DNA of 41,029 bases from a virus, in UHGV virus genome UHGV-0145872; one strand, written 5' to 3'. Made by a program: the position numbers and the translations under genes. The first letter of the stretch is position 1. Each line of letters begins with the position of its first letter. Below, one piece after another: positions 1,737-41,029 of this stretch. The notes below the pieces were generated by a model that saw nothing but the letters and a program-made list of their open reading frames with translations, ran no database searches and had not been told where the DNA came from.

Positions 1737-2404
1737 CTGATTACGCCTCAATCGTTTTCTTTTCTGGTGATTTTCACCATCACATGTCAGTTGTATATGC
1801 AAGGGAATCAATAAAAATATCACCCTGCAAGCACTTCAAAGCTGATTATGGGGATATTCTAGAACTATTCACAAAACTATTCCAGACATATCAAGAACTA
1901 TTTCTTGATCTATTCATAATAAAATAAAACATGCTATCAACTACGGATCATATCCTCCTTAGGTGTGTCGTTGTACTGTTCGACTGTTCTTGTGGTCAGA
2001 TTAACAATCTGAAGAGTAAAAGCGACAGTAATCTGTCTGTTATAGTGGCGATAAAAACACTGACTGCGCATCCTGTATGTGAAATCCTGTCATGTAGAGC
2101 AGTAAGCAATGACAGACATGCATGTTATATGTGAAGGGGCCGGGAGACGACATAATCAGTATGGCTGTCATTCTGGTTGTAAAACGCGATCACTTTCCGG
2201 GGGTAAAAGATGATATGGAGGTTGACAAACGGTTTGCTTCGGATTGTCTTTTCTGGGGCCTGAAGTACGGGGGCAGAAAAATAATTCCAGAGTAAATCTG
2301 CTCTGTTTTTAGGACAGAAAACTCCATGCTGGCTGTAAAAGTGAAAAATTAACACCCAGTATGTATGGAAGTCTGAAGATGTTGAGAATGTCGGTATGAT
2401 ACTA

Positions 2405-2535
2405 TATACACGTATTTTACTAAGTATTTTTACTAAGCATTTCAGTAAGTGTTATACACGTATTTTCTACTAAGTGTTTTACCAGACATACACGTGTTTT
2501 CATAAACAGCCCTATAAGTGTTTTCATTAAGCATT
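2405..2535. repeat. cluster of degenerate direct repeats; candidate transposase end-binding sites / prophage left terminus
   Basis: TACACGT(A/G)TTTT at about 2408, 2455 and 2489; ACTAAG(T/C) at 2420, 2432, 2468; TAAGTGTTTT at 2471 and 2516; all within a non-coding AT-rich stretch. Confidence 0.45.
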
Positions 2536-3398
2536 GCTGTACACATTGCTTTGTCTGAAACACATCCAGTTTAGTAAATCTTTACGTTAGCTAAAATCAG
2601 TTTAAAGCTGCTGTAAAACCTTTTTGTTTAAGCAATCAATCTGCTATTCGATTTTACTGATGTTGCGTTTAACCTTTTCTGAGTTTTTGTGTTTTTAGTC
2701 GTTAACCTGAGACAAGTGTCTTTACGTAAAAACGCAAATCCGACTGAGATAACCTGGTGTGATTTACGGTGTGCTTGCGACGATTTTGTTAAATGGTTCT
2801 ATGGATGATTTTGTGACGATGAGATTGATGAGATGATTAACTGGCCCTGGTGTTTTTTCTCAGTGCAAGGTGATTATCTTTATCATAAGGCTCTTTTCAG
2901 AAAAAGCGTGATGATTGGTTCTGGTGTTTTGATTCAGATGAGATTTACGTTATCGATGGTTAATCGTTTTTATGGTGTGTTGAAAAGTAACGTTTTCAGG
3001 ATAAGAAAATCGATTCTGATATTGGTGAACTTTGTTCTTGTGGCAGAGTTATCTGTAAACAGGTTTTAAGTGCGCTATTCGGCTCTGTGATTGAGTTGTG
3101 TGGTTAAGCTGTAGGTTTTGGTGTTGTTGTTGATTTGCATTGCCAGGAAGCGTTCTGGTTGCGTTTCTGGTGTTTTGTTCGAATGTTCTGTGGATCCTTT
3201 TCCCTTCAGGCTTTTCTCGTCGTCCATGTCGTTTTTAAATCTATTCATGCTGTTGTTGCGTGTTTTGCTGCTGTGTGCAGGATTATCTTTTCGTTCCGGG
3301 ATGGTTTGTTCCGTTTCAATCACTCTTAATCAGAGAGTTGTAGCATTGCTCAATGCCGGATGCCGTAAAGTTTTACCGCGTTGATGAATGATGTGAAG

Positions 3399-3531
<133 letters not shown>

Positions 3532-7402: not shown

Positions 7403-8596
7403 TTAAACCCCTTTGACAACGTCAGCGTTGACCTGTGGAACCCCGATTTCAGCGGCCAGATTCATGGCGGCTATTACCAGGTTACTGACGGCCAGCGGAT
7501 ACAGCAGGCTGACCATATTTTTACGATGACTTCCCGGATTGCTCAGGCGGGCACGTATGGCATCCACTGCGCTGGCGTCCATAATGTCCGTCAGTTGTTT
7601 ACCGGCCCGTTGCAGTTTGAACGTCAGAAACTCTTCAAGGTTATTGTCCAGAGGCAGAAGTTCGACCACCTCACAGCGCTGAACGACTTCACGGACTTCC
7701 ATATTGCGTTCAGACAGTTTTGTCGCCAGTTCCGGCTGGCCAATCAGCACGATGGACAGCAGTTTTTTGAAACCGGACTCCAGCTCAAAAAAGCGTTTGA
7801 GGTGTTTCAGTGTCGGAATGGGCAGACTGTGGGCCTCCTCAATCACCAGAACGTGGCTGAACCCCGCCTGGCTGCTGTCTTTCAGGACGCGATGCAGCTG
7901 GCGAAAGCGGGCGTCCTGACTGCGTCTGATGCTTTCCAGTGGTGCGATGGTACTGATAATGGCTTCGGCAATCGCTGCTGCCTTCAGGGTTTTCCCTTTC
8001 ACATCGTTGTCTTCCATAGCGATGATGTATGGCTCGATAACAATCACCGGCGCATTCTCGCGGTTGATACGTTCAGTCAGGTCACGGCGCAGCGTGGATT
8101 TACCCGCACCGGACTCACCGATGACGGCCATAAACCCACCATGACGGGCTGTCTGGTACAGCGCCTCACGCACGTAGCGAATGTCCGGAGTGGTGAACAC
8201 ATCATCAGAACCCTGCATGGCTTCGTCGGCGAACGGGTCACGGAAAAGACCAAACGCTTTTTTGGTTGCTGGAAATAACACCTGTTTTTTGAGTAACATA
8301 TTCTCTTCCTCACTGAGGCTCGTTTTATCTGTGGTACCCGCTGTACGGGGCGTGGCCGCGCCCTGTACAGCATCAAAACTCTTCGTTGTATCAATCCCCT
8401 GACTTTCCAGCCAGGACGCAAGACGCCGGCGCACTTCTCCGGGGCTGGTGCGGGGCCACGCGTTATGATTCACAATCTGGGCCAGCGTGGCCTCAGAAAC
8501 ATCGACAGCTCTCGCCACCACCGCCTGTGGAATACGGGCCTCTTTCAGTTGCTGCTTCAGTACCAGCATGTATCCCTCCTCAGTTGCCGTTAACAA
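7403..8596 (-). CDS. transposition-helper AAA+ ATPase (MuB/TniB/ExeA-like)
   Basis: Walker A GESGAGKST and Walker B-like VLVIEEAH; 397 aa; start overlaps the transposase stop (translational coupling). Confidence 0.8.
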   Translation of the reverse strand: MLTATEEGYMLVLKQQLKEARIPQAVVARAVDVSEATLAQIVNHNAWPRTSPGEVRRRLASWLESQGIDTTKSFDAVQGAATPRTAGTTDKTSLSEEENMLLKKQVLFPATKKAFGLFRDPFADEAMQGSDDVFTTPDIRYVREALYQTARHGGFMAVIGESGAGKSTLRRDLTERINRENAPVIVIEPYIIAMEDNDVKGKTLKAAAIAEAIISTIAPLESIRRSQDARFRQLHRVLKDSSQAGFSHVLVIEEAHSLPIPTLKHLKRFFELESGFKKLLSIVLIGQPELATKLSERNMEVREVVQRCEVVELLPLDNNLEEFLTFKLQRAGKQLTDIMDASAVDAIRARLSNPGSHRKNMVSLLYPLAVSNLVIAAMNLAAEIGVPQVNADVVKGV

Positions 8597-10349
8597 TGCT
8601 GATAACGCTGCTGCGGGCCGGCGTGGTCAGCGTGGCCATGACTTCATCCAGTGCGGCTTCCGGTACGCCGTCCGGATACTGTGCCGTTAACTGGCGGTAA
8701 TGTTCCGGCGTCCAGGTAAGGCCGTCGGCGCTGAACTTATCGCGCAGGGCTTTCGCGGCCTCCACATGAGTCATGGGACGTTGTTCAGTGCGCGGCCCGC
8801 GTACGTCAGAGGCCTGACCTCGCTTCGGCATATAGGCCGGAAGTGTGGCGTCATCAATATGTTTATATGGGTCAAGCCGCCCGCCGAACGGCAGCGCCTT
8901 CGCCTTGCGTGCGGCAGCTGCATCTGCGGCGTTGTCTGTACCGGTGACCAGCGCTTCGGTTTCTTTTGCCGCCATCTGCGCCGGGGTTTCCGGCAGGGCT
9001 TTGTAACTTTCGCCAAATACCGCCGCGCCTTCAGCAAAGCCAAACTCGTTCTTTCTGACTTCTTCGACCAGGAAGAACGTCTCGTGGCCGTCCTCACCGG
9101 TCAGAACCACCTGTGCCACATCGCTGCGCCACGGGTTACGGGTAATCATCAGTTTTTCACCGACCAGTACGCCCGGTACCGTTGATACGTCAAATTCAGT
9201 GCCCCGGAACGAGACACGAAGTTTTGGCGTGACTTTGCGGAGTTCTGGTGCCGCCACAGCCAGTTCACGACATACCTCAACGGAAGGCGCTTTTTTCAGC
9301 TGCTCAGCAGTAATCTTCAGCCAGATATCCGTGCGGGTTTTACCGTGGCGGCTGTGAACAGCCGTGGCGTTAAAGTGGCTGCGCCATTTCGCGGCCAGCG
9401 CATTGAGTTCTTCCAGACTGTGAACCGGCCGGAACTTCAGACCCGGCTCCAGCTTGCGTTCGATAATGTCCCGCGCCTTTTCCACCTGTCCGGTGGCGCG
9501 GGCGTTATGCGGCTTGTGCGCTATCAGGTCGATGCCCAGTGAGCGGCACATGTTTTTCGTCATACCCGCGGTGTTTGCCGAGCCGGGGTCGAGATAGAGT
9601 ATTTTTGGCACGCCGTGCAGCACGTCTGCGCCGCCACGCTCCTGCATGGCGTTGATAAGCACAGAACACAGGTTCTCACCTGATTCCGCGCCCGTCACAT
9701 ACTCAACGTAAATCCAGCCGCTGGCATGGTCGGTAATCTCGTAACTCCACACGCGGTCACTGGCGATACGGGCAAGGTTAGCGGGCTTGTTCTTGTAGAA
9801 CTTCGCGCTGTCCATCACCTGCAGCCCTTTATGTCCATTGCTCAGGTAGTAAAGCGTGCAGAGTGAGGCGTCAATCTGCCAGACATGATTGGGGTGCAGA
9901 CTGGCCACTTCGGTATGCGGTGCAGGAGCATCCAGTTGTTCCGGGTGCAGGCCATAGTTACGCAGAGCACGGCTGATGGCATCTTCAGACAACGGGAAAA
10001 ACTCACCGGTGGTTTCATCTGTTCTGCCTGCGGTGATAAAGCCGTTAGCCCGCAGGGTTTCCACTGCATCTGCGATGGAATAGAGGCGTTTACCGTTCTT
10101 GCGGGTGGCCTCACGCAGTGTGGCAGATATCAGCGCGGCTTCGTCGCGGGTCAGGGCGCTGCGTCCGGCATCAGCGCGTTTTTTGCGTTTATCAGTCACA
10201 GAGACCTCCTTCAGCCTGCGCAGCAGAGTGGCGCGGGACATGCCAAGTTCAGCACAGGCAGCGTCGTATATTGCACCGCGTTTACCATGCCCCGCGTCAC
10301 GTGCCGCGCGGGCGACATAAACCAGTCGTTCAGTCAGGGCAGCATTCAT
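8580..10349 (-). CDS. DDE transposase (integrase-core/rve type), phage transposase A analogue
   Basis: 589 aa; N-terminal HTH region, central catalytic core with candidate DDE residues (HVWQIDAS..., YLDPGSANTAG..., GQVEKARDIIE); immediately upstream of the B-like ATPase as in transposable phages. Confidence 0.8.
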   Translation of the reverse strand: MNAALTERLVYVARAARDAGHGKRGAIYDAACAELGMSRATLLRRLKEVSVTDKRKKRADAGRSALTRDEAALISATLREATRKNGKRLYSIADAVETLRANGFITAGRTDETTGEFFPLSEDAISRALRNYGLHPEQLDAPAPHTEVASLHPNHVWQIDASLCTLYYLSNGHKGLQVMDSAKFYKNKPANLARIASDRVWSYEITDHASGWIYVEYVTGAESGENLCSVLINAMQERGGADVLHGVPKILYLDPGSANTAGMTKNMCRSLGIDLIAHKPHNARATGQVEKARDIIERKLEPGLKFRPVHSLEELNALAAKWRSHFNATAVHSRHGKTRTDIWLKITAEQLKKAPSVEVCRELAVAAPELRKVTPKLRVSFRGTEFDVSTVPGVLVGEKLMITRNPWRSDVAQVVLTGEDGHETFFLVEEVRKNEFGFAEGAAVFGESYKALPETPAQMAAKETEALVTGTDNAADAAAARKAKALPFGGRLDPYKHIDDATLPAYMPKRGQASDVRGPRTEQRPMTHVEAAKALRDKFSADGLTWTPEHYRQLTAQYPDGVPEAALDEVMATLTTPARSSVISIVNGN

Positions 10350-17545: not shown

Positions 17546-19137
17546 CAAAATCATCCGGAGTGATTTTAAACGCCGCTGGCGGCGGCCCCGAAGGGATGAG
17601 TCCCATGGACGGGAGGAATAACCTTGCTCCCGTTTTGCCTGATACCTCGGCGCTGGATGCCCCTCCCGTTCTGTTGCCTTACCAGCAGCGCTGGGTGGCA
17701 GACACCTCTCCGCTTAAGGTGATAGAAAAGAGCCGTCGTACCGGTATTACATGGGCTGAGGCATCCGATAACGTACTGACCGCCGCCTCTTCTGCGCCAG
17801 CAGGCGGGATGAATGTGTATTACATCGCTTATAACCAGGACATGACCGTCGAATACATTCAGGCGTGTGCGATGTGGGCACGGGCATTCAACTATGCGGC
17901 CAGTGAAATTGAAGAAGGATTCTGGGAAGAGGACGACGACGACAAACACATCAAGACTTACACCATCAAATTTCCTGACTCCGGCTTTCGTATTGTTGCG
18001 CTCTCCAGCCGCCCGTCTAACCTGCGTGGCCGTCAGGGTATTATTGTTATCGACGAAGCGGCGTTCCATGAGCAACTGGACGAACTGCTGAAAGCGGCGC
18101 TGGCGATGCTTATCTGGGGGGGAAAGGTACGCGTTATCTCCACCCATGACGGTGACGACAATCCGTTCAATACGCTTATCGGGGATATCCGTGCCGGACG
18201 TCAGGGAGGCAGCATACATCGCATCACTTTCCGGGAAGCCGTATCTGAGGGGCTGTTCCGGCGCGTCTGTCTGCGCACCGGGAAGGAATGGTCGGAGGCA
18301 TCCGAGCAAGCCTGGATGGCATCGGTGTACAAATTCTACGGTGCCGGCGCATCCGAAGAGCTTGACTGTATTCCGGCCAACGGTGGCGGTGCCTGGCTGT
18401 CCCGTGCCCTGATAGAGTCCCGCATGTCCGCTGATACGCCGGTATTGCGTCTGACCTGCAAGGAAGGTTATGAACTGCTGTCTGATGAGGTTCGCTTCCG
18501 CGAGACGCAGGACTGGCTTGATGAGTATCTGAAACCCTTGCTGGAGGCACTCCCCACTGATGCCCGCTCTTTCCTGGGGCGCGACTTTGGCCGTAGCGGT
18601 GATTTGTCGGTGGACTATCCCCTGCTGCAGGAGAAGAACCTGGTACGACGCGTGCCATTCGTACTGGAGCTGCGTAACGTGCCGTTCAGACAGCAGGAGC
18701 AAATCACCTGGTATCTGATGGATGGCCTGCCCGGTCTGCTGGGTGCAGCGTTTGATGCCCGTGGTAATGGTGCCTATCTGGCTGAATACGCCATGCAGCG
18801 CTACGGCTCCAGCCGGGTTCAGCAGGTGATGCCAACCGAAGGCTGGTACCGGGAGCATATGCCTCCGGTCAAAGCTGCACTGGAAGACGGTAACCTGGTG
18901 GACTTACCAAAGGATGAAGACACACTGGATGACCTGCGGGCCGTTCAGGTGGTGAACGGTGTCCCCCGCGTACCGGAGCAACGCTCAAAAGCAAAGGCTG
19001 ACGGTGGTAAACGCCACGGGGATTCAGCCATCGCACTGGCGCTGGCGTATTTCGCCAGCCGTGAAATTAACAAAGGGCCGGTGAAGGCAAGCTCACGCCG
19101 TCGTCGTCAGGCGGCCCGTATGCTGGAGGGATTCTGA
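17542..19137 (+). CDS. terminase large subunit (Mu gp28-like)
   Basis: 531 aa; ATPase-type motifs (GIIVIDEAAFH Walker B-like) followed by a nuclease-like C-terminal domain; gene order. Confidence 0.8.
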   Translation: MTKSSGVILNAAGGGPEGMSPMDGRNNLAPVLPDTSALDAPPVLLPYQQRWVADTSPLKVIEKSRRTGITWAEASDNVLTAASSAPAGGMNVYYIAYNQDMTVEYIQACAMWARAFNYAASEIEEGFWEEDDDDKHIKTYTIKFPDSGFRIVALSSRPSNLRGRQGIIVIDEAAFHEQLDELLKAALAMLIWGGKVRVISTHDGDDNPFNTLIGDIRAGRQGGSIHRITFREAVSEGLFRRVCLRTGKEWSEASEQAWMASVYKFYGAGASEELDCIPANGGGAWLSRALIESRMSADTPVLRLTCKEGYELLSDEVRFRETQDWLDEYLKPLLEALPTDARSFLGRDFGRSGDLSVDYPLLQEKNLVRRVPFVLELRNVPFRQQEQITWYLMDGLPGLLGAAFDARGNGAYLAEYAMQRYGSSRVQQVMPTEGWYREHMPPVKAALEDGNLVDLPKDEDTLDDLRAVQVVNGVPRVPEQRSKAKADGGKRHGDSAIALALAYFASREINKGPVKASSRRRRQAARMLEGF

Positions 19138-20633
19138 TGGCGAGGGGTATCTGGGTTTCACCCGATGAATTTGTTGCTTTTTCTGAGCCTCAGAAATCAC
19201 TGACCGCGCAGATTGCCTCCCGCAGCCGCGCGATCGACTTTTACGGACTGGGCATGTATCTGCCCAATCCTGATCCCATTCTCAAGGCTCAGGGACGGGA
19301 TATCCGTATCTACCGCGAACTGCGCACCGACCCGCTGGTCGGGGGCTGTATCCGCAGACGTAAAGCAGCGCTCAAATCGCTGGAGCGTGGACTGGAGCGT
19401 GGTCACGCCTCTGCCCGGGTCTTCCGTTTCATCCGCGACATGCTCGACGATCTGGATCTGTCCCGCATCATCGGTGAAATGAGCGATGCCGTGCTCTACG
19501 GGTATCAGCCCTGTGAAATCATGTGGGGCCGTTCGGTCAGGTCGTGGGCGGTGACGGATATTGTCGGCAAACCGCCTGAGTGGTTTCAGTTTGATACGGA
19601 CAACTGCCTGCGCTTCCGGGCGCGTGATGCGGGTGTGGAGGGTGAGCTGCTGTCACCGTCAAAATTCGTGGTGCCGGCACAGGATGCCTCGTATGACAAT
19701 CCTTACGGTTTCCCGGACCTGTCCATGTGCTTCTGGCCGGTCGCCTTCAAGAAAGGCGGGATGAAATTCTGGCTCCGCTTTGCCGAAAAGTTTGGCTCCC
19801 CGTGGGTGATCGGTAAGCACCCGAGGGGCGCAAATGATGCAGAGATTGAAAAACTGCTGGACTCCATGGAGCAGATGGTGGAGGACGCGGTGGCCGCCAT
19901 CCCCGATGACAGCAGTATTGAGCTCAGGGCAGCGGATGGCAAGGCAGACAGCAGCGAGGTATTTCGCGAGCTGATCACACTGTCACGCAGTGAGATCTCC
20001 ATTGCATTACTCGGTCAGAATCAGACCACGGAAGCGAACAGTAACAAGGCCTCTGCACAGGCCGGGCTGGAGGTAACGGCTGATATCCGCGATGCGGATG
20101 CGGACATCATTCAGGCGGCAGTGAATCAGGTCATCAGAACGGTGGTCACCCTGAACTTCGGCGATGTGCCGTGTCCGGTCTGGGCCATGTGGGAACAGGA
20201 GGCCATTGATGACACCCGTGCCACCCGCGACGAAAAACTCACCCGGGCGGGTCTGCGTCTGACCCCGCAGTACTTCAAGCGTGAGTACCAACTGCAGGAC
20301 GGCGATATTGACGAGACACCACCGTCGGAACGCCAGAATAACATGCTGCCGCTGTCATTTGCCGAGGCGATTGATGCTGATATTCAGGCTCAGCAGCAGC
20401 TTGACGACGCGCTGGACATTCTGATGAACGGAGGCGCGTTAAATGGCACGCTGGAACCCGTCCTGGCACCTCTGTTCAGGCGGGTCGAAAATGGGGTTAA
20501 CCCGTCTGAGCTGCTGGGCGAACTGGCGGAGCTCTACCCTCAGATGAACACGGACGATCTGCAGGAGCGGCTGGCCCGCATTCTCTTTGTGACAAATATC
20601 TGGGGGCGTCTGCATGAGCGTGACAACGGCTGA
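19137..20633 (+). CDS. portal protein (Mu gp29 / DUF935-like)
   Basis: 498 aa; immediately after the terminase large subunit, before the F-like gene. Confidence 0.75.
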   Translation: MARGIWVSPDEFVAFSEPQKSLTAQIASRSRAIDFYGLGMYLPNPDPILKAQGRDIRIYRELRTDPLVGGCIRRRKAALKSLERGLERGHASARVFRFIRDMLDDLDLSRIIGEMSDAVLYGYQPCEIMWGRSVRSWAVTDIVGKPPEWFQFDTDNCLRFRARDAGVEGELLSPSKFVVPAQDASYDNPYGFPDLSMCFWPVAFKKGGMKFWLRFAEKFGSPWVIGKHPRGANDAEIEKLLDSMEQMVEDAVAAIPDDSSIELRAADGKADSSEVFRELITLSRSEISIALLGQNQTTEANSNKASAQAGLEVTADIRDADADIIQAAVNQVIRTVVTLNFGDVPCPVWAMWEQEAIDDTRATRDEKLTRAGLRLTPQYFKREYQLQDGDIDETPPSERQNNMLPLSFAEAIDADIQAQQQLDDALDILMNGGALNGTLEPVLAPLFRRVENGVNPSELLGELAELYPQMNTDDLQERLARILFVTNIWGRLHERDNG

Positions 20634-36075: not shown

Positions 36076-36646
36076 GCCATTACAACTCCCGCCACCGCTT
36101 GAGGGTGATATCAGTCTCAGGACGCTGGGAAGACTGGCAGGGCGGCTGGATAACATCGACCTGAGCGTACTGATGGTCTTTCTCGTCGATATCGTCGACA
36201 GTTCTGCGCTGCCATGGCTGGGCGAGCAGTTCTCACTGTCTGGCGATGGCTGGGAGCTGGCGGAATCGGACGATGTTCGCCGCATGCTTATAAAAGCAGC
36301 CATCGAACTACACCGGTATAAAGGGACGCCGTGGTCAATCCGGGAAGTTATCCGCCGTTTTGGCTTTGGTGAAGTGGATCTGATTGAAGGCACAGGTCGT
36401 CTCAGTTACGACGGCAATCGCAGCTATAACGGACTGTTTGTTCATGGAGATGCAGCCGCCTGGGCGGTTTATCGCGTTATTCTGAAACAGCCCATTACTA
36501 ACGATCAGGCCGCGATGCTGCGTCAGACGCTCGCTGCATTTGCACCGGCCCGCTGCCATCTGGCCAGCCTGGAGTATCAGTCTGTGGCCATTCGCTATAA
36601 CAATACCGCCATCCATGATGGCAGTTATAACCACGGGAGCAGTTGA
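36056..36646 (+). CDS. tail protein I-like (P2 gpI / Mu gp48 family)
   Basis: About 190 aa; position between baseplate J and tail fibre; likely start at ATG about 36068. Confidence 0.55.
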   Translation: MECLMTEPLQLPPPLEGDISLRTLGRLAGRLDNIDLSVLMVFLVDIVDSSALPWLGEQFSLSGDGWELAESDDVRRMLIKAAIELHRYKGTPWSIREVIRRFGFGEVDLIEGTGRLSYDGNRSYNGLFVHGDAAAWAVYRVILKQPITNDQAAMLRQTLAAFAPARCHLASLEYQSVAIRYNNTAIHDGSYNHGSS

Positions 36647-38073
36647 TTATGGGAAACCTGAATGAAACAGAAAAGTGGGAAGAAAAAATCTATCAACTGG
36701 AGACATCAGATCCGGTTCTGGGTGGTGCTGACGGGATATCAAATCGAGCCCCCCGGCAACTGGCAAACAGGACGAAATGGCTGAAGAAAAAAACGGAGGA
36801 AGCCGCACAGTCACTGGCTGAACACGTACGTTCCCGTAACCACCCGGACGCGACACTGACAGCTAAGGGGTTCACCCAACTGAGCAGTGCCACCAACAGC
36901 ACCTCTGAAACGCTGGCCGCCACACCAAAAGCCGTCAAGGCTGCATACGACCTTGCAGCCGGCAAGGCACCCGTCAGTCACACTCACCCGTGGAGTCAGA
37001 TAACGGGAGTGCCTGCTGCCTCGCTGACGGCAAAAGGCACCGTACAACTGAGCAGCGCCACGGACAGTCAATCAGAAACTGAGGCTGCCACGCCGAAGGC
37101 TGTGAAAATCGCGTATGATCTGGCCCGGGGAAAATACACAGCCCAGGATGCAACAACGACCCGTAAAGGGATCGTACAACTGAGCAGTGCCACCAACAGC
37201 ACCTCTGAAACGCTGGCCGCCACACCAAAGGCCGTCAAGGCTGCATATGACCTGGCTGCCGGCAAGGCCCCCGTCAGCCACACTCACCCGTGGAGTCAGA
37301 TAACGGGAGTGCCTGCTGCCTCGCTGACGGCAAAAGGCACCATACAATTGAGCAGTGCCATCAACAGCACGTCTGAAATACTGGCCGCCACACCGAAAGC
37401 GGTCAAGGCTGCATACGATCTGGCAAACGGAAAACAACCGGCAGATGCCACGCTCACTGCTCTGGCAGGACTTGCCACTGCAGCAGATCGGTTGCCTTAT
37501 TTTACCGGAGCAGACCGCGCAGCGCTGGCAACCCTTACAGCTATTGGTCGCGCTATTATCGCTAAGGGCAGTATAAAAGATGTCCTCAATTACCTTGGTT
37601 TGGGGGAAGGCTCTGCATTGCCTGTTGGTGTGCCTGTTCCGTGGCCCACCGCCACACCGCCAGCAGGCTGGTTACAGTGCAACGGAGCTACGTTCACCAA
37701 AGAACAATATCCTGTTCTGGCCAGAGTCTACCCGACCCTCCGTCTTCCCGATTTACGCGGTGAGTTTATCCGTGGATGGGACGACGGGCGCAAGATTGAC
37801 GAGGGGCGTAAGTTGCTTTCATGGCAGAAAGGTACACTGGTCGGCGGTCATGACGATAACGATTCTTCGCTGGATATCTCGTACATGAGTAACGGAAATA
37901 ATATTGACTATGGCGGCGATAAGGTGTTTGCGGGGAATTACCGTAGCGATTATTTGTGGTACGCAATTCTGGGTGGAACAAACAGTCGCGCAAAAGCCGA
38001 ATTAAACGGAGCATTCTTTAACATAACCCGCCCCCGCAATATCGCGTTTAACTATATCGTGAGGGCGGCGTGA
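36643..38073 (+). CDS. tail fibre protein: constant shaft with repeats plus currently fused C-terminal collar-domain cassette 1
   Basis: 476 aa; repeated fibre motif (QLSSATNSTSETLAATPKAVKAAYDLA) three to four times; C-terminal about 150 aa beginning PVPWPTATPPAGWLQCNG...YP.L...LPDLRGEFIRGWDDGR resembles the phage tail-collar receptor-binding domain. Confidence 0.8.
   Translation: MIMGNLNETEKWEEKIYQLETSDPVLGGADGISNRAPRQLANRTKWLKKKTEEAAQSLAEHVRSRNHPDATLTAKGFTQLSSATNSTSETLAATPKAVKAAYDLAAGKAPVSHTHPWSQITGVPAASLTAKGTVQLSSATDSQSETEAATPKAVKIAYDLARGKYTAQDATTTRKGIVQLSSATNSTSETLAATPKAVKAAYDLAAGKAPVSHTHPWSQITGVPAASLTAKGTIQLSSAINSTSEILAATPKAVKAAYDLANGKQPADATLTALAGLATAADRLPYFTGADRAALATLTAIGRAIIAKGSIKDVLNYLGLGEGSALPVGVPVPWPTATPPAGWLQCNGATFTKEQYPVLARVYPTLRLPDLRGEFIRGWDDGRKIDEGRKLLSWQKGTLVGGHDDNDSSLDISYMSNGNNIDYGGDKVFAGNYRSDYLWYAILGGTNSRAKAELNGAFFNITRPRNIAFNYIVRAA
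36878..37350 (+). repeat. about 170 bp near-identical direct repeats (period 300 bp) within tail fibre shaft
   Basis: 36878-37050 and 37178-37350 differ at only a few positions; encode repeated fibre motifs. Confidence 0.7.
37583..37608 (-). other. candidate invertase crossover site A (12-2-12, inside tail fibre gene)
   Basis: Minus strand reads TTCCCCCAAACC-AA-GGTAATTGAGGA; left half matches the hix/gix/cix-like half-site pattern TTxxCxxAAACC; lies at the constant/variable junction of the fibre. Confidence 0.55.
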
Positions 38074-38079
38074 TACCGT

Positions 38080-38694
38080 TCAGCTGGCAAGTGCCAGTGG
38101 CGCTTCCGGCCAGCTGATTTCAGGTGCCGTGCTGATATCCAGTGCGTTCAGCTCGTCGATATAATCCAGCACGGCGTTCAGTTTTGCCGTTTCTTCTGGT
38201 GTCAGACTGCGACCAGCACGCAGTTTGAGGTTGATAAGATCGACGGACGCCATCGCCTGTTTCACCCGTTGCTGGCGTTGCTGTCTGGCAACCTCCAGTT
38301 CTGCGGCTCGCTGCCGTTCAGTATCGGTTACCCACGCCTCACCGTTCCAGGTATCCCATGGCGTGGCCGGCTGTTTTGTGGTGGTGTCCGCCGGGTAATC
38401 ACCCGGTTGGGTAATCAGAACGGGGTTACCGTTCTCCGTGCTGTATACCGTCTCGCCGCGGTGATCAGGCACATGCTCCCACCCGTTCAGCGTGGCAGTC
38501 CGGCAAACCACGTAACCCGAAATTGCCTCCGGCGGTGCATCGGCGCACGAATGTGCCGGAGTACCCACCCCAAGGGCGAGATACTCCACAGAGGATGAGG
38601 TGTATTCCCGGGTTTCCTCGTCATAGTGATATACAGTGATCTCGCCCGCTACAGTGGCGATACCGTTTTCATCCAGAACTGCAGTGTTACTCAT
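38080..38694 (-). CDS. tail fibre assembly protein (Tfa / Mu U family)
   Basis: 204 aa; C-terminal LNAVLDYIDELNALDISTAPEISWPEAP is the conserved Tfa-family tail; translationally coupled to cassette 2 on the minus strand. Confidence 0.75.
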   Translation of the reverse strand: MSNTAVLDENGIATVAGEITVYHYDEETREYTSSSVEYLALGVGTPAHSCADAPPEAISGYVVCRTATLNGWEHVPDHRGETVYSTENGNPVLITQPGDYPADTTTKQPATPWDTWNGEAWVTDTERQRAAELEVARQQRQQRVKQAMASVDLINLKLRAGRSLTPEETAKLNAVLDYIDELNALDISTAPEISWPEAPLALAS

Positions 38695-39227
38695 TAAACT
38701 GCCCTCACAATGTAATTAAGTGCAATGCTACGGGGTCTGACAGTGATACCCTTCGCATACCCGCTTCTGATAGAGGTCAGAATAGTAGCCTGCATACCAT
38801 TGTCTGACATTGCCACGACAGGATCGCTGAATGTTGTCCCGTCCGGCATTTTAAAGCTGCCCTCACGAAGGTCTGTAATGGAATCTTCATTGTTGAATCC
38901 CATGCCGACTATCCCCGAGGTTCCCGTAGTGTCCTGGTTATAATAATCCAGCATTGCTGTTCTTAACAGCGTTGCCCCTTGTGCGGACAGCAACTTACGT
39001 CCTGTATCAACTTTGCGCCCGTCGTCCCATCCACGGATAAACTCACCGCGTAAATCGGGAAGACGGAGGGTCGGGTAGACTCTGGCCAGAACAGGATATT
39101 GTTCTTTGGTGAACGTAGCTCCGTTGCACTGTAACCAGCCTGCTGGCGGTGTGGCGGTGGGCCACGGAACAGGCACACCAACGGGTAGCGCCGAGCCTTC
39201 TCCTAAACCAACGTTTTTATGCGGCCC
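38694..39227 (-). CDS. silent alternative tail-fibre C-terminal cassette 2 (collar domain, no start codon of its own)
   Basis: Begins ...NVGLGEGSALPVGVPVPWPTATPPAGWLQCNG..., near-identical to the junction in the expressed fibre, then diverges, then ends with the conserved ...NYIVRAV; frame open from crossover site B. Confidence 0.65.
   Translation of the reverse strand, partial: GPHKNVGLGEGSALPVGVPVPWPTATPPAGWLQCNGATFTKEQYPVLARVYPTLRLPDLRGEFIRGWDDGRKVDTGRKLLSAQGATLLRTAMLDYYNQDTTGTSGIVGMGFNNEDSITDLREGSFKMPDGTTFSDPVVAMSDNGMQATILTSIRSGYAKGITVRPRSIALNYIVRAV
39198..39223 (+). other. candidate invertase crossover site B
   Basis: TTCTCCTAAACC-AA-CGTTTTTATGCG; same 12-2-12 architecture and conserved left half-site; opposite orientation to site A. 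Confidence 0.55.
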
Positions 39228-39732
39228 TTACGATGTAATTAAACGCAACATTGCGGGGGCGCATTGATATCCATGCCCCGGTAAAATTATCCTCCGCTGT
39301 CCTTTGAATACCCGTTATAGAGTTATCTGCTGATGCAGGAACATAATCGCTATTATTTCCTGCTTTAGGATTAGCTGGGTTTCCAACGGTTATAACAGAA
39401 TCAGCAGTAGCAAAAGCGATACCTACTTTGACATTAGTATTCAGATCGTAACCGTAATAATCCTGCAAAGCTGTACGAATAAATGTTGCAGCCTGACCAC
39501 TTAGCAATGAACGCCCCGTATCAACTTTGCGCCCGTCGTCCCATCCACGGATAAACTCACCGCGCAAATCGGGAAGACGGAGGGTCGGGTAGACTCTGGC
39601 CAGAACAGGATATTGTTCTTTTGTAAAGGCGCGCCCGTCGCACTTTAACCAGCCTGCTGGCGGTGTGGCGGTGGGCCATGGAACAGGCACACCAACAGGC
39701 AGTGCAGAGCCTTCCCCCAAACCAACGTTTAT
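39217..39732 (-). CDS. silent alternative tail-fibre C-terminal cassette 3 (collar domain)
   Basis: Begins EINVGLGEGSALPVGVPVPWPTATPPAGWLKCDG... and ends ...NVAFNYIVRAA; frame open from crossover site C; its stop lies inside site B. Confidence 0.65.
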   Translation of the reverse strand: MNVGLGEGSALPVGVPVPWPTATPPAGWLKCDGRAFTKEQYPVLARVYPTLRLPDLRGEFIRGWDDGRKVDTGRSLLSGQAATFIRTALQDYYGYDLNTNVKVGIAFATADSVITVGNPANPKAGNNSDYVPASADNSITGIQRTAEDNFTGAWISMRPRNVAFNYIVRAA

Positions 39733-39737
39733 CTCTC
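39712..39737 (+). other. candidate invertase crossover site C (adjacent to invertase gene)
   Basis: TTCCCCCAAACC-AA-CGTTTATCTCTC; left half identical to site A; about 55 bp upstream of the invertase start, as gix/cix sites sit next to gin/cin. Confidence 0.55.
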
Positions 39738-39791
39738 AAATCCTCCCCACATTATCTCAGTACTTTAACCACTCAAAAGGGAGTATTTTTA

Positions 39792-40261
39792 ATGCTGATT
39801 GGCTACATACGTGTGTCAACAAATGACCAAAACACAGATTTGCAACGCAATGCATTAATGTGCGCAGGATGTGAACAGATTTTTGAGGACAAAATGAGCG
39901 GAACCAAGTCGGAACGACCAGGCCTGAAACGCGCTTTAAAGTGCCTTAAAAGAGGGGATACATTGGTGGTCTGGAAGCTGGATCGGTTGGGTAGAAGAAT
40001 GAAACACCTCATTGCTCTCACAGAAGAGCTACGCGCAAAAGGTGTCAATTTTCGCAGTCTGACGGATTCAATCGATACCAGCACTCCGATGGGAAGGTTC
40101 TTTTTTCATATGATGGGTGCACTGGCAGAAATGGAGCGTGAACTGATAGTTGAGCGCACGCTGGCAGGACTGGCTGCTGCGCGAGCACAAGGAAGAGTTG
40201 GAGGACGTCGCCCGAAACTGACGAAGGAGCAGCATGAGCAGATCGCAAGATTGCTCCAGAA
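39792..40261 (+). pseudogene. Gin/Cin/Pin-family serine DNA invertase, 3' end truncated by IS26 insertion
   Basis: N-terminus MLIGYIRVSTNDQNTDLQRNALMCAGCEQIFEDK... is near-identical to Gin/Pin as recalled, with the catalytic Ser in RVSTNDQ; after about 157 codons (…RRPKLTKEQHEQIARLLQK) the frame runs into the IS26 inverted repeat and ends after 16 IS-derived residues; the C-terminal HTH domain is missing. Confidence 0.8.
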
Positions 40262-41029
40262 GGCACTGTTGCAAATAGTCGGTGGTGATAAACTTATCAT
40301 CCCCTTTTGCTGATGGAGCTGCACATGAACCCATTCAAAGGCCGGCATTTTCAGCGTGACATCATTCTGTGGGCCGTACGCTGGTACTGCAAATACGGCA
40401 TCAGTTACCGTGAGCTGCAGGAGATGCTGGCTGAACGCGGAGTGAATGTCGATCACTCCACGATTTACCGCTGGGTTCAGCGTTATGCGCCTGAAATGGA
40501 AAAACGGCTGCGCTGGTACTGGCGTAACCCTTCCGATCTTTGCCCGTGGCACATGGATGAAACCTACGTGAAGGTCAATGGCCGCTGGGCGTATCTGTAC
40601 CGGGCCGTCGACAGCCGGGGCCGCACTGTCGATTTTTATCTCTCCTCCCGTCGTAACAGCAAAGCTGCATACCGGTTTCTGGGTAAAATCCTCAACAACG
40701 TGAAGAAGTGGCAGATCCCGCGATTCATCAACACGGATAAAGCGCCCGCCTATGGTCGCGCGCTTGCTCTGCTCAAACGCGAAGGCCGGTGCCCGTCTGA
40801 CGTTGAACACCGACAGATTAAGTACCGGAACAACGTGATTGAATGCGATCATGGCAAACTGAAACGGATAATCGGCGCCACGCTGGGATTTAAATCCATG
40901 AAGACGGCTTACGCCACCATCAAAGGTATTGAGGTGATGCGTGCACTACGCAAAGGCCAGGCCTCAGCATTTTATTATGGTGATCCCCTGGGCGAAATGC
41001 GCCTGGTAAGCAGAGTTTTTGAAATGTAA
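40262..41029 (+). mobile_element. IS26 (IS6 family), partial: left inverted repeat and complete transposase gene; right end lies beyond the window
   Basis: 14 bp terminal inverted repeat GGCACTGTTGCAAA at 40262-40275, followed by the characteristic IS26 leader and the Tnp26 ORF; the 820 bp element would end at about 41081. Confidence 0.9.
40325..41029 (+). CDS. tnpA: IS26 transposase Tnp26 (234 aa)
   Basis: Protein MNPFKGRHFQRDIILWAVRWYCKYGISYRELQEMLAERGVNVDHSTIYRWVQRYAPEMEKRLRWYWR...GEMRLVSRVFEM matches IS26 transposase as I recall it; stop codon at the window end. Confidence 0.9.
   Translation: MNPFKGRHFQRDIILWAVRWYCKYGISYRELQEMLAERGVNVDHSTIYRWVQRYAPEMEKRLRWYWRNPSDLCPWHMDETYVKVNGRWAYLYRAVDSRGRTVDFYLSSRRNSKAAYRFLGKILNNVKKWQIPRFINTDKAPAYGRALALLKREGRCPSDVEHRQIKYRNNVIECDHGKLKRIIGATLGFKSMKTAYATIKGIEVMRALRKGQASAFYYGDPLGEMRLVSRVFEM

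Follow-up and report, generated by a model that had tools for sequence, protein, structure and literature searches.

An IS26 insertion in the gin-like invertase gene of a Mu-like Escherichia coli prophage with a three-site tail-fibre switch

Introduction

In a virus genome (UHGV-0145872), an invertase gene that adjoins an invertible tail-fibre segment runs into an insertion sequence part-way along its reading frame. The question raised by this locus is what the insertion has left of the invertase, and whether the phage is still able to exchange its fibre tip. The DNA that was analysed, a single stretch of 41,029 nucleotides, is called the window throughout. A preliminary description, made from the letters of the window, held that IS26 had truncated the invertase, that the C-terminal helix-turn-helix (HTH) domain was lost with it, and that the prophage should be locked with fibre cassette 1 in place unless another invertase in the cell acted in trans. 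The junction, the element, the DNA beyond the window and the arrangements of the switch in related prophages were analysed here against this description.

Results

The prophage and its host flank

The invertase gene belongs to an apparently complete Mu-like transposable prophage (window 3400-41029), which matched Escherichia phage PhiKM at 98% identity across 90% of the query. Pfam matches included an rve transposase (8580-10349), a MuB-like ATPase (AAA_22, 7403-8596) and Portal_Mu (19137-20633, E = 1.6e-89). The minus strand carried the transposase and MuB-like genes (7403-10349), and the plus strand the late genes. The ends of the prophage were of the TG...CA type, the left one (TGATTAGAC) at 3400, as set by comparison with the uninterrupted host locus, and the right one (GCGCATCA) as read in two contigs, L001 and L004; no inverted copy of the right end was matched within the window. 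Relatives were inserted at unrelated loci (ybaP, ssuB/pepN, near yahO, aroA and iha). The left host junction of the window (3395-3400, GATGTGAAGT followed by TGATTAGAC) was in an ExPEC island, approximately 1.5 kb from ireA. The island DNA beside the left end of the prophage (1824-3399, approximately 1.6 kb) contained no ORF of at least 90 aa and looks non-coding; for the equivalent stretch of strain HM670, RefSeq annotates just a 57-aa hypothetical protein.

Layout of the tail-fibre switch

The switch was composed of three crossover sites and three alternative fibre tips, with cassette 1 currently joined. The tail-fibre gene (36643..38073, plus strand) was listed as an intact ORF of 476 aa, made up of a constant part and the cassette 1 tip; the same gene on contig L006 matched Pfam Phage_fiber_2 and Collar. 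The two parts are joined at site A (37583..37608, plus strand; TCCTCAATTACC TT GGTTTGGGGGAA), which is inside the fibre gene at approximately codon 313, where a 229-nt inverted repeat has its outer edge. The sole tail-fibre assembly (chaperone) gene followed (38080..38694, minus strand, 204 aa; its identical counterpart in L005 and L006 matched Pfam Caudo_TAP, and RefSeq names it 'tail fiber assembly protein'). Beyond it were two silent alternative tips, cassette 2 (38694..39176, minus strand, 160 aa) and cassette 3 (39217..39720, minus strand, 167 aa), both with Pfam Collar matches, which were found joined to the constant part in the relatives L011 and L010, respectively. In L012, which is also inverted between sites A and C, the third tip was different.

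Site B (39198..39222, minus strand) read GCATAAAAACG TT GGTTTAGGAGAA on the minus strand. Site C (39712..39735, minus strand) read GAGATAAACG TT GGTTTGGGGGAA on the same strand, was approximately 70 bp upstream of the invertase ATG and aligned with gixR of Mu. All three sites were of the gix/hix type with a TT/AA centre, and each was at the outer edge of one of the inverted repeats (226-229 nt, 90-93% complementary) that connect the fibre gene with the two downstream cassettes. The assembly gene had the orientation of cassettes 2 and 3 and was convergent with cassette 1. It can never take the orientation of cassette 1, as sites B and C are direct repeats.

There is one assembly gene for three tips; as the segment now stands, and is possibly locked, this gene runs antisense to the fibre operon. 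The fibre shaft (36843-37434) contained approximately 300-bp (100-aa) tandem repeats in two copies, 83% identical. Fibre length was 476 aa here vs. 730 aa in strain CD306, and repeat content varies between otherwise near-identical prophages.

The invertase-IS26 junction

The invertase frame had been described as intact for about 157 codons and then entering the IS26 left inverted repeat at 40262, and this was borne out to the base. The ATG at 39792 was preceded by a good ribosome-binding site (AAAGGGAG), and the 470 nt of the invertase gene that remain (39792..40261, plus strand; codons 1-156 and two bases of codon 157) were 100% identical to the gene of strain CD306. In that strain the gene is intact at 573 bp and encodes a 190-aa 'recombinase family protein' (WP_000904922.1). 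The third base of codon 157 is supplied by IS26, which changes AAA (Lys) to AAG; exactly 157 invertase residues are therefore retained. The reading frame actually encoded was a fusion ORF of 173 aa (39792..40313, plus strand), in which the 157 invertase residues are followed by 16 from IS26 (ALLQIVGGDKLIIPFC) and a stop codon that ends at 40313.

The identification of the inserted element as IS26 was confirmed by its left inverted repeat (40262-40275, 14 bp, GGCACTGTTGCAAA) and by its body, as the 768 bases present (40262..41029, plus strand) matched a complete 820-bp copy at 768/768 positions. Records annotated as IS26 in GenBank and RefSeq were 100% or 99.9% identical, and the tnp26 frame was intact and open (40325-41029, 234 aa; RefSeq protein WP_001067855.1). 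The last 52 bp of the element, including the right repeat, are outside the window. The window opens on an ATG and closes with the stop codon of tnp26 (IS26 position 768), and therefore looks as if it was cut at gene boundaries and not at an assembly break.

The invertase side of the junction was common: window 39200-40261 was 100% identical to many E. coli chromosomes. When 39200-41029 was compared with 5426 complete E. coli genomes by megablast, many chromosomal matches were returned at 99.9-100% identity, all of which ended at window 40261 (query position 1062). The junction itself was absent from all 5426 genomes, the places that covered at least 80% being unrelated joins. It was also absent from the plasmid and phage collections (matches were IS26-only or invertase-only), the exact pattern of the left junction gave 0 matches in contigs of GTDB representative genomes, and that of the right junction gave 0 matches in JGI metagenome contigs. 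Since the junction was missing from the complete E. coli genomes, the GTDB representatives and the JGI metagenome contigs, the allele is rare. When the 173-aa fusion protein was looked up by exact sequence, 5 independent public contigs from separate samples were returned (clusters in Logan and ENA only, with no NCBI accession), and an identical junction on 5 independent contigs indicates that it is not an artefact.

DNA beyond the window and the origin of the junction

The sequence to the right of the window was read in contig L004 (Logan run ERR12510513, 7.3 kb), in which 1381 bases were 100% identical to the window and which spans the whole element. IS26 measured exactly 820 bp in L004, its 14-bp terminal repeats were perfect, and CTCCAGAA, which is the target sequence at 40254..40261 of the window, was present on either side. 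The 3' remnant of the invertase gene was directly downstream of IS26, and the prophage right end was intact. In silico excision of IS26 and one duplicate restored the 573-bp intact CD306 gene, base for base; the event was therefore a simple insertion, at least in the L004 sample. The IS26 right end, the 8-bp target duplication and the 3' remnant that the preliminary description had expected past the window were all found in this way, on a proxy contig; they were seen in L004 only, which is possibly another strain. That description had also considered that the C-terminal domain might be encoded downstream of an excised element, which is not the case in L004, where IS26 is still in place. The remnant matched Pfam HTH_7 positions 18-43, which correspond to HTH helices 2 and 3, and no in-frame ATG, GTG or TTG occurred in it before the last sense codon. 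Separate translation of the remnant was ruled out on this absence of a start and on its length, as 33 residues make no domain.

L004 was also the only contig to reach the right host junction (L004 1615-1630, GCGCATCA followed by GGTGTATTACG), which was in iha. Its right flank was ruled out as the continuation of the left flank of the window, iha being a different locus from the ireA island. Under a simple insertion with an intact prophage end, the genome of the window would be expected to continue after CTCCAGAA with AGGGTATGACAG (also given as AGGGTATGAC) through to GCGCGGCGCATCA. Past the prophage end, the same view predicts GAAGT (the 5-bp Mu-type duplication) and then CAATCCAAATC, which is ireA-island sequence.

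Two other origins of the junction were weighed against a simple insertion. IS26 in the genome of the window might be the edge of a larger IS26-bounded resistance region, or might mark a deletion or inversion, mediated by IS26, in which the 3' end of the invertase gene and the right end of the prophage were lost and which left a defective prophage. The window stops 52 bp before the right end of the element, IS26 often causes adjacent deletions (the EC0585 chromosome, L002, is an example), and the left host flank near ireA and the L004 right flank in iha are not contiguous. However, L004 has the same junction over its 1381 identical bases together with a clean insertion, the duplication and an intact prophage right end, and it is most economical to assume that a single junction arose once; we consider a larger rearrangement improbable. 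A still lower probability, close to negligible, was assigned to an assembly chimera at a collapsed IS26 repeat. IS26 is multicopy and a frequent point of assembly breaks, and contigs L005 and L006 stop approximately 55 bp into it, but the window shared its junction with 5 contigs from separate samples, and the matching right junction showed a perfect 8-bp duplication and a reconstituted gene. The artefact was rejected on the recurring junction and the duplication.

Domains retained and lost

Pfam Resolvase was matched at residues 3-135 (E = 5.5e-51), and the catalytic domain is complete; the Ser9 nucleophile was present, and the motif GYIRVSTNDQ aligned with Gin residues 1-10. When the intact invertase was compared with the Mu Gin structures 4m6f and 3uj3, residues 1-181 aligned (E = 2e-93). 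HTH_7 was found at 138-180 of the intact protein (48 bits), and the 52-residue DNA-binding domain of Hin (1hcr) aligned to residues 139-184. Pfam returned no HTH_7 match in the 173-aa fusion protein. The earlier claim that the C-terminal HTH is lost was correct for helices 2 and 3 but not for helix 1, which is retained.

Hin and Gin require their C-terminal domain for binding to hix or gix. With helices 2 and 3 gone, of which helix 3 is the recognition helix, the fusion protein should therefore no longer bind the crossover sites, and from what is known of Hin and Gin we infer that invertase activity is lost. The allele of the window is a disrupted member of the Gin/Hin/Cin/Pin family and effectively a pseudogene. 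Since the invertase is the last gene before the prophage right end, a polar effect is not expected. An intact second copy of the invertase nearby would have told against the preliminary description; tblastn found none within the 41-kb window, nor any other resolvase-family gene.

The mechanism proposed is as follows. A single active copy of IS26 would have entered the gin-like invertase gene of an E. coli Mu-like prophage at codon 157, and the protein then encoded would keep the whole serine-recombinase catalytic and dimerisation domain and lose helices 2 and 3 of the HTH. The prophage would be unable to invert its own three-site, three-cassette switch, and cassette 1 would stay on the fibre gene. 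Another state would be reachable through an invertase of the Pin/Gin/Cin family acting in trans, through RecA acting across the inverted repeats, or through loss of IS26; the RecA route between repeats of 226-229 nt would be slow and loss of IS26 very rare. Taken as a whole (knock-out by IS26, loss of binding, loss of the prophage's own inversion, cassette 1 left in place), this account is very probably correct.

State of the switch and inversion in trans

Relatives with an intact 190-aa invertase were found in all three arrangements, namely the state of the window (L001 and L013), inverted between A and B (L011) and inverted between A and C (L010 and L012), from which it follows that the switch operates when the gene is intact. 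The invertase was identical (WP_000904922.1) in four of these five relatives (L001, L011, L012 and L013), and L012 and L013 were the same aroA-site prophage in opposite states. In complete genomes, 211 of approximately 586 records of related prophages, roughly a third, were colinear with the state of the window. All contigs with the IS26 allele agreed with that state, over the whole segment in L005 and L006 and at site C in L004 and L007; they are a small and possibly clonal sample, and their shared state may reflect clonal descent. One state in all IS26-allele contigs and three states in the intact relatives fit a lock. Mu that is gin-negative is viable and stuck in one G orientation. That the switch is frozen with cassette 1 is a reasonable but conditional reading.

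It is conditional because the crossover sites match the e14 repeats at 15/16 positions and invertase homologues are widespread. The invertase gene could be dead and the switch not frozen, if a resident invertase of the Pin/Gin/Cin family, encoded by another prophage or a P1-like plasmid, binds sites A, B and C and inverts the segment in trans with the Fis-dependent enhancer. The core of sites A-C, TTGGTTT[G/A]GG[G/A]GAAGG, matched the e14 P-segment repeat (TTGGTTTGGGAGAAGG) at 15/16 positions; PinE inverts the P segment, as does PinQ, which acts in trans from a different prophage (PMC12529663), and Mu gin is complemented by e14 Pin (van de Putte 1984, as cited in PMC12529663). At least one DNA homologue of the invertase catalytic region was present in 3690/5426 complete E. 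coli genomes (68%), and 5 of the 6 listed genomes that carry the same invertase at ≥99.8% identity had 3-4 matching places. The enhancer may also have been spared, as IS26 is inserted 470 nt into the gene and leaves intact the first ~200 nt, the part that contains the enhancer in gin and hin. The 5' region of the gene had approximately 81% nucleotide identity to Mu gixR-gin, the location of the enhancer being presumed, and a scan for the Fis-site motif gave loose G-N13-C candidates alone. The Hin enhancer is ~100 bp from hixL and is also active at a distance (PMC3798978).

Against inversion in trans are the absence of a second invertase inside the 41-kb window and the single state of the IS26-allele contigs; as a speculation, the truncated protein, which retains the dimer interface, might also poison heterologous invertases. 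On balance, we regard it as possible that the switch is still being inverted in trans, although we do not favour it, and the caveat about trans-acting invertases in the preliminary description carries real weight on the sequence comparisons above. The favoured account remains that the prophage has lost its own means of inversion.

Discussion

The locus resembles the Gin/G segment of Mu (cf. Cin/C of P1 and Pin/P of e14), in that the invertase adjoins an invertible fibre segment at the right end, inversion exchanges the C-terminal fibre tip, and site C aligns with gixR. Unlike Mu, which has two sites and two S-U pairs, it has three sites, three tips and one chaperone gene; it also differs in that no com/mom is present downstream, the early (transposase) genes are on the strand opposite to the late genes, and the invertase gene is interrupted. 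In classical gin mutants of Mu, locked in G(+) or G(-), the fibre type is fixed and the phage is alive. Those are laboratory mutants, whereas the allele described here is natural and was caused by IS26. The Min system of p15B has more than two crossover sites, several fibre-tip arrangements and one Gin-family invertase. With six sites, many more arrangements and a P1-like plasmid as its carrier, it differs from the present switch. Min of p15B is named in PMC6906374.

Truncation of phage invertase genes by insertion sequences is already documented in P1-like plasmids, and the present case is a new instance of a known event. Insertion sequences, in pTZ20_1P IS26, truncate the tail-switch invertase gene cin in the P1-like phage-plasmids pTZ20_1P and pSvP1 (Venturini et al., 2019, PMC6906374), and the authors likewise infer that the host-range switch was lost (PMC6906374). 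The IS26 event in pTZ20_1P also deleted the C segment and tail genes, whereas here the insertion is clean, the substrate of the switch is intact and so, apparently, is the phage; the host element is a chromosomal Mu-like prophage and not a P1-like plasmid. In the literature, P1-like precedents were the only ones found for this IS26-invertase allele. Biologically, the finding is ordinary: one more knock-out by IS26, in a class of switch that is well understood and on which its effect can be predicted.

A natural gin-null allele may nevertheless serve as a marker for following one prophage lineage, and could be used to gauge cross-talk among Pin-family invertases and invertible fibre segments in E. 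coli genomes. An intact IS26 within an apparently complete transposable phage is also a possible phage route for IS26 and later cargo. The non-contiguous host flanks of the window and L004 may mean either that the IS26-marked phage has moved, by transposition or by a further lysogenisation, or that a rearrangement has occurred. It can be conjectured, although we think it rather unlikely, that the invertase-dead, IS26-carrying phage is still mobile and that repeated hits in invertase genes perhaps reflect selection for locked switches; the hits cited for such selection are the one described here and the IS26 insertions in pAVS0973-B and pTZ20_1P. If this were true, a transposable phage of fixed host range would ferry an active IS26 between chromosomal sites or strains, and the carried IS26 would be a landing pad for translocatable units with resistance genes.

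Two further loci with IS26 near a fibre switch were found. In the EC0585 chromosome (L002 5003-5822), IS26 has no target duplication (CATTGAAA / CCCGGGAA) and is flanked by two truncated genes, a DUF2612 baseplate gene and a fibre-assembly gene, beside pinE. The fibre gene appears to have been removed in a deletion mediated by IS26, which would have destroyed the substrate of the switch and not the invertase. In pAVS0973-B (NZ_CP124473.1, L003 5282-6682), an independent 820-bp IS26 with the duplication CACATCAA was inserted at approximately codon 97 of a related invertase gene. This element is a P1-like phage-plasmid that shares fibre cassettes and a chaperone gene with the Mu-like prophage at 100% identity. 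The chromosome of the strain that carries pAVS0973-B has an intact prophage invertase (H18), which is a natural set-up for inversion in trans.
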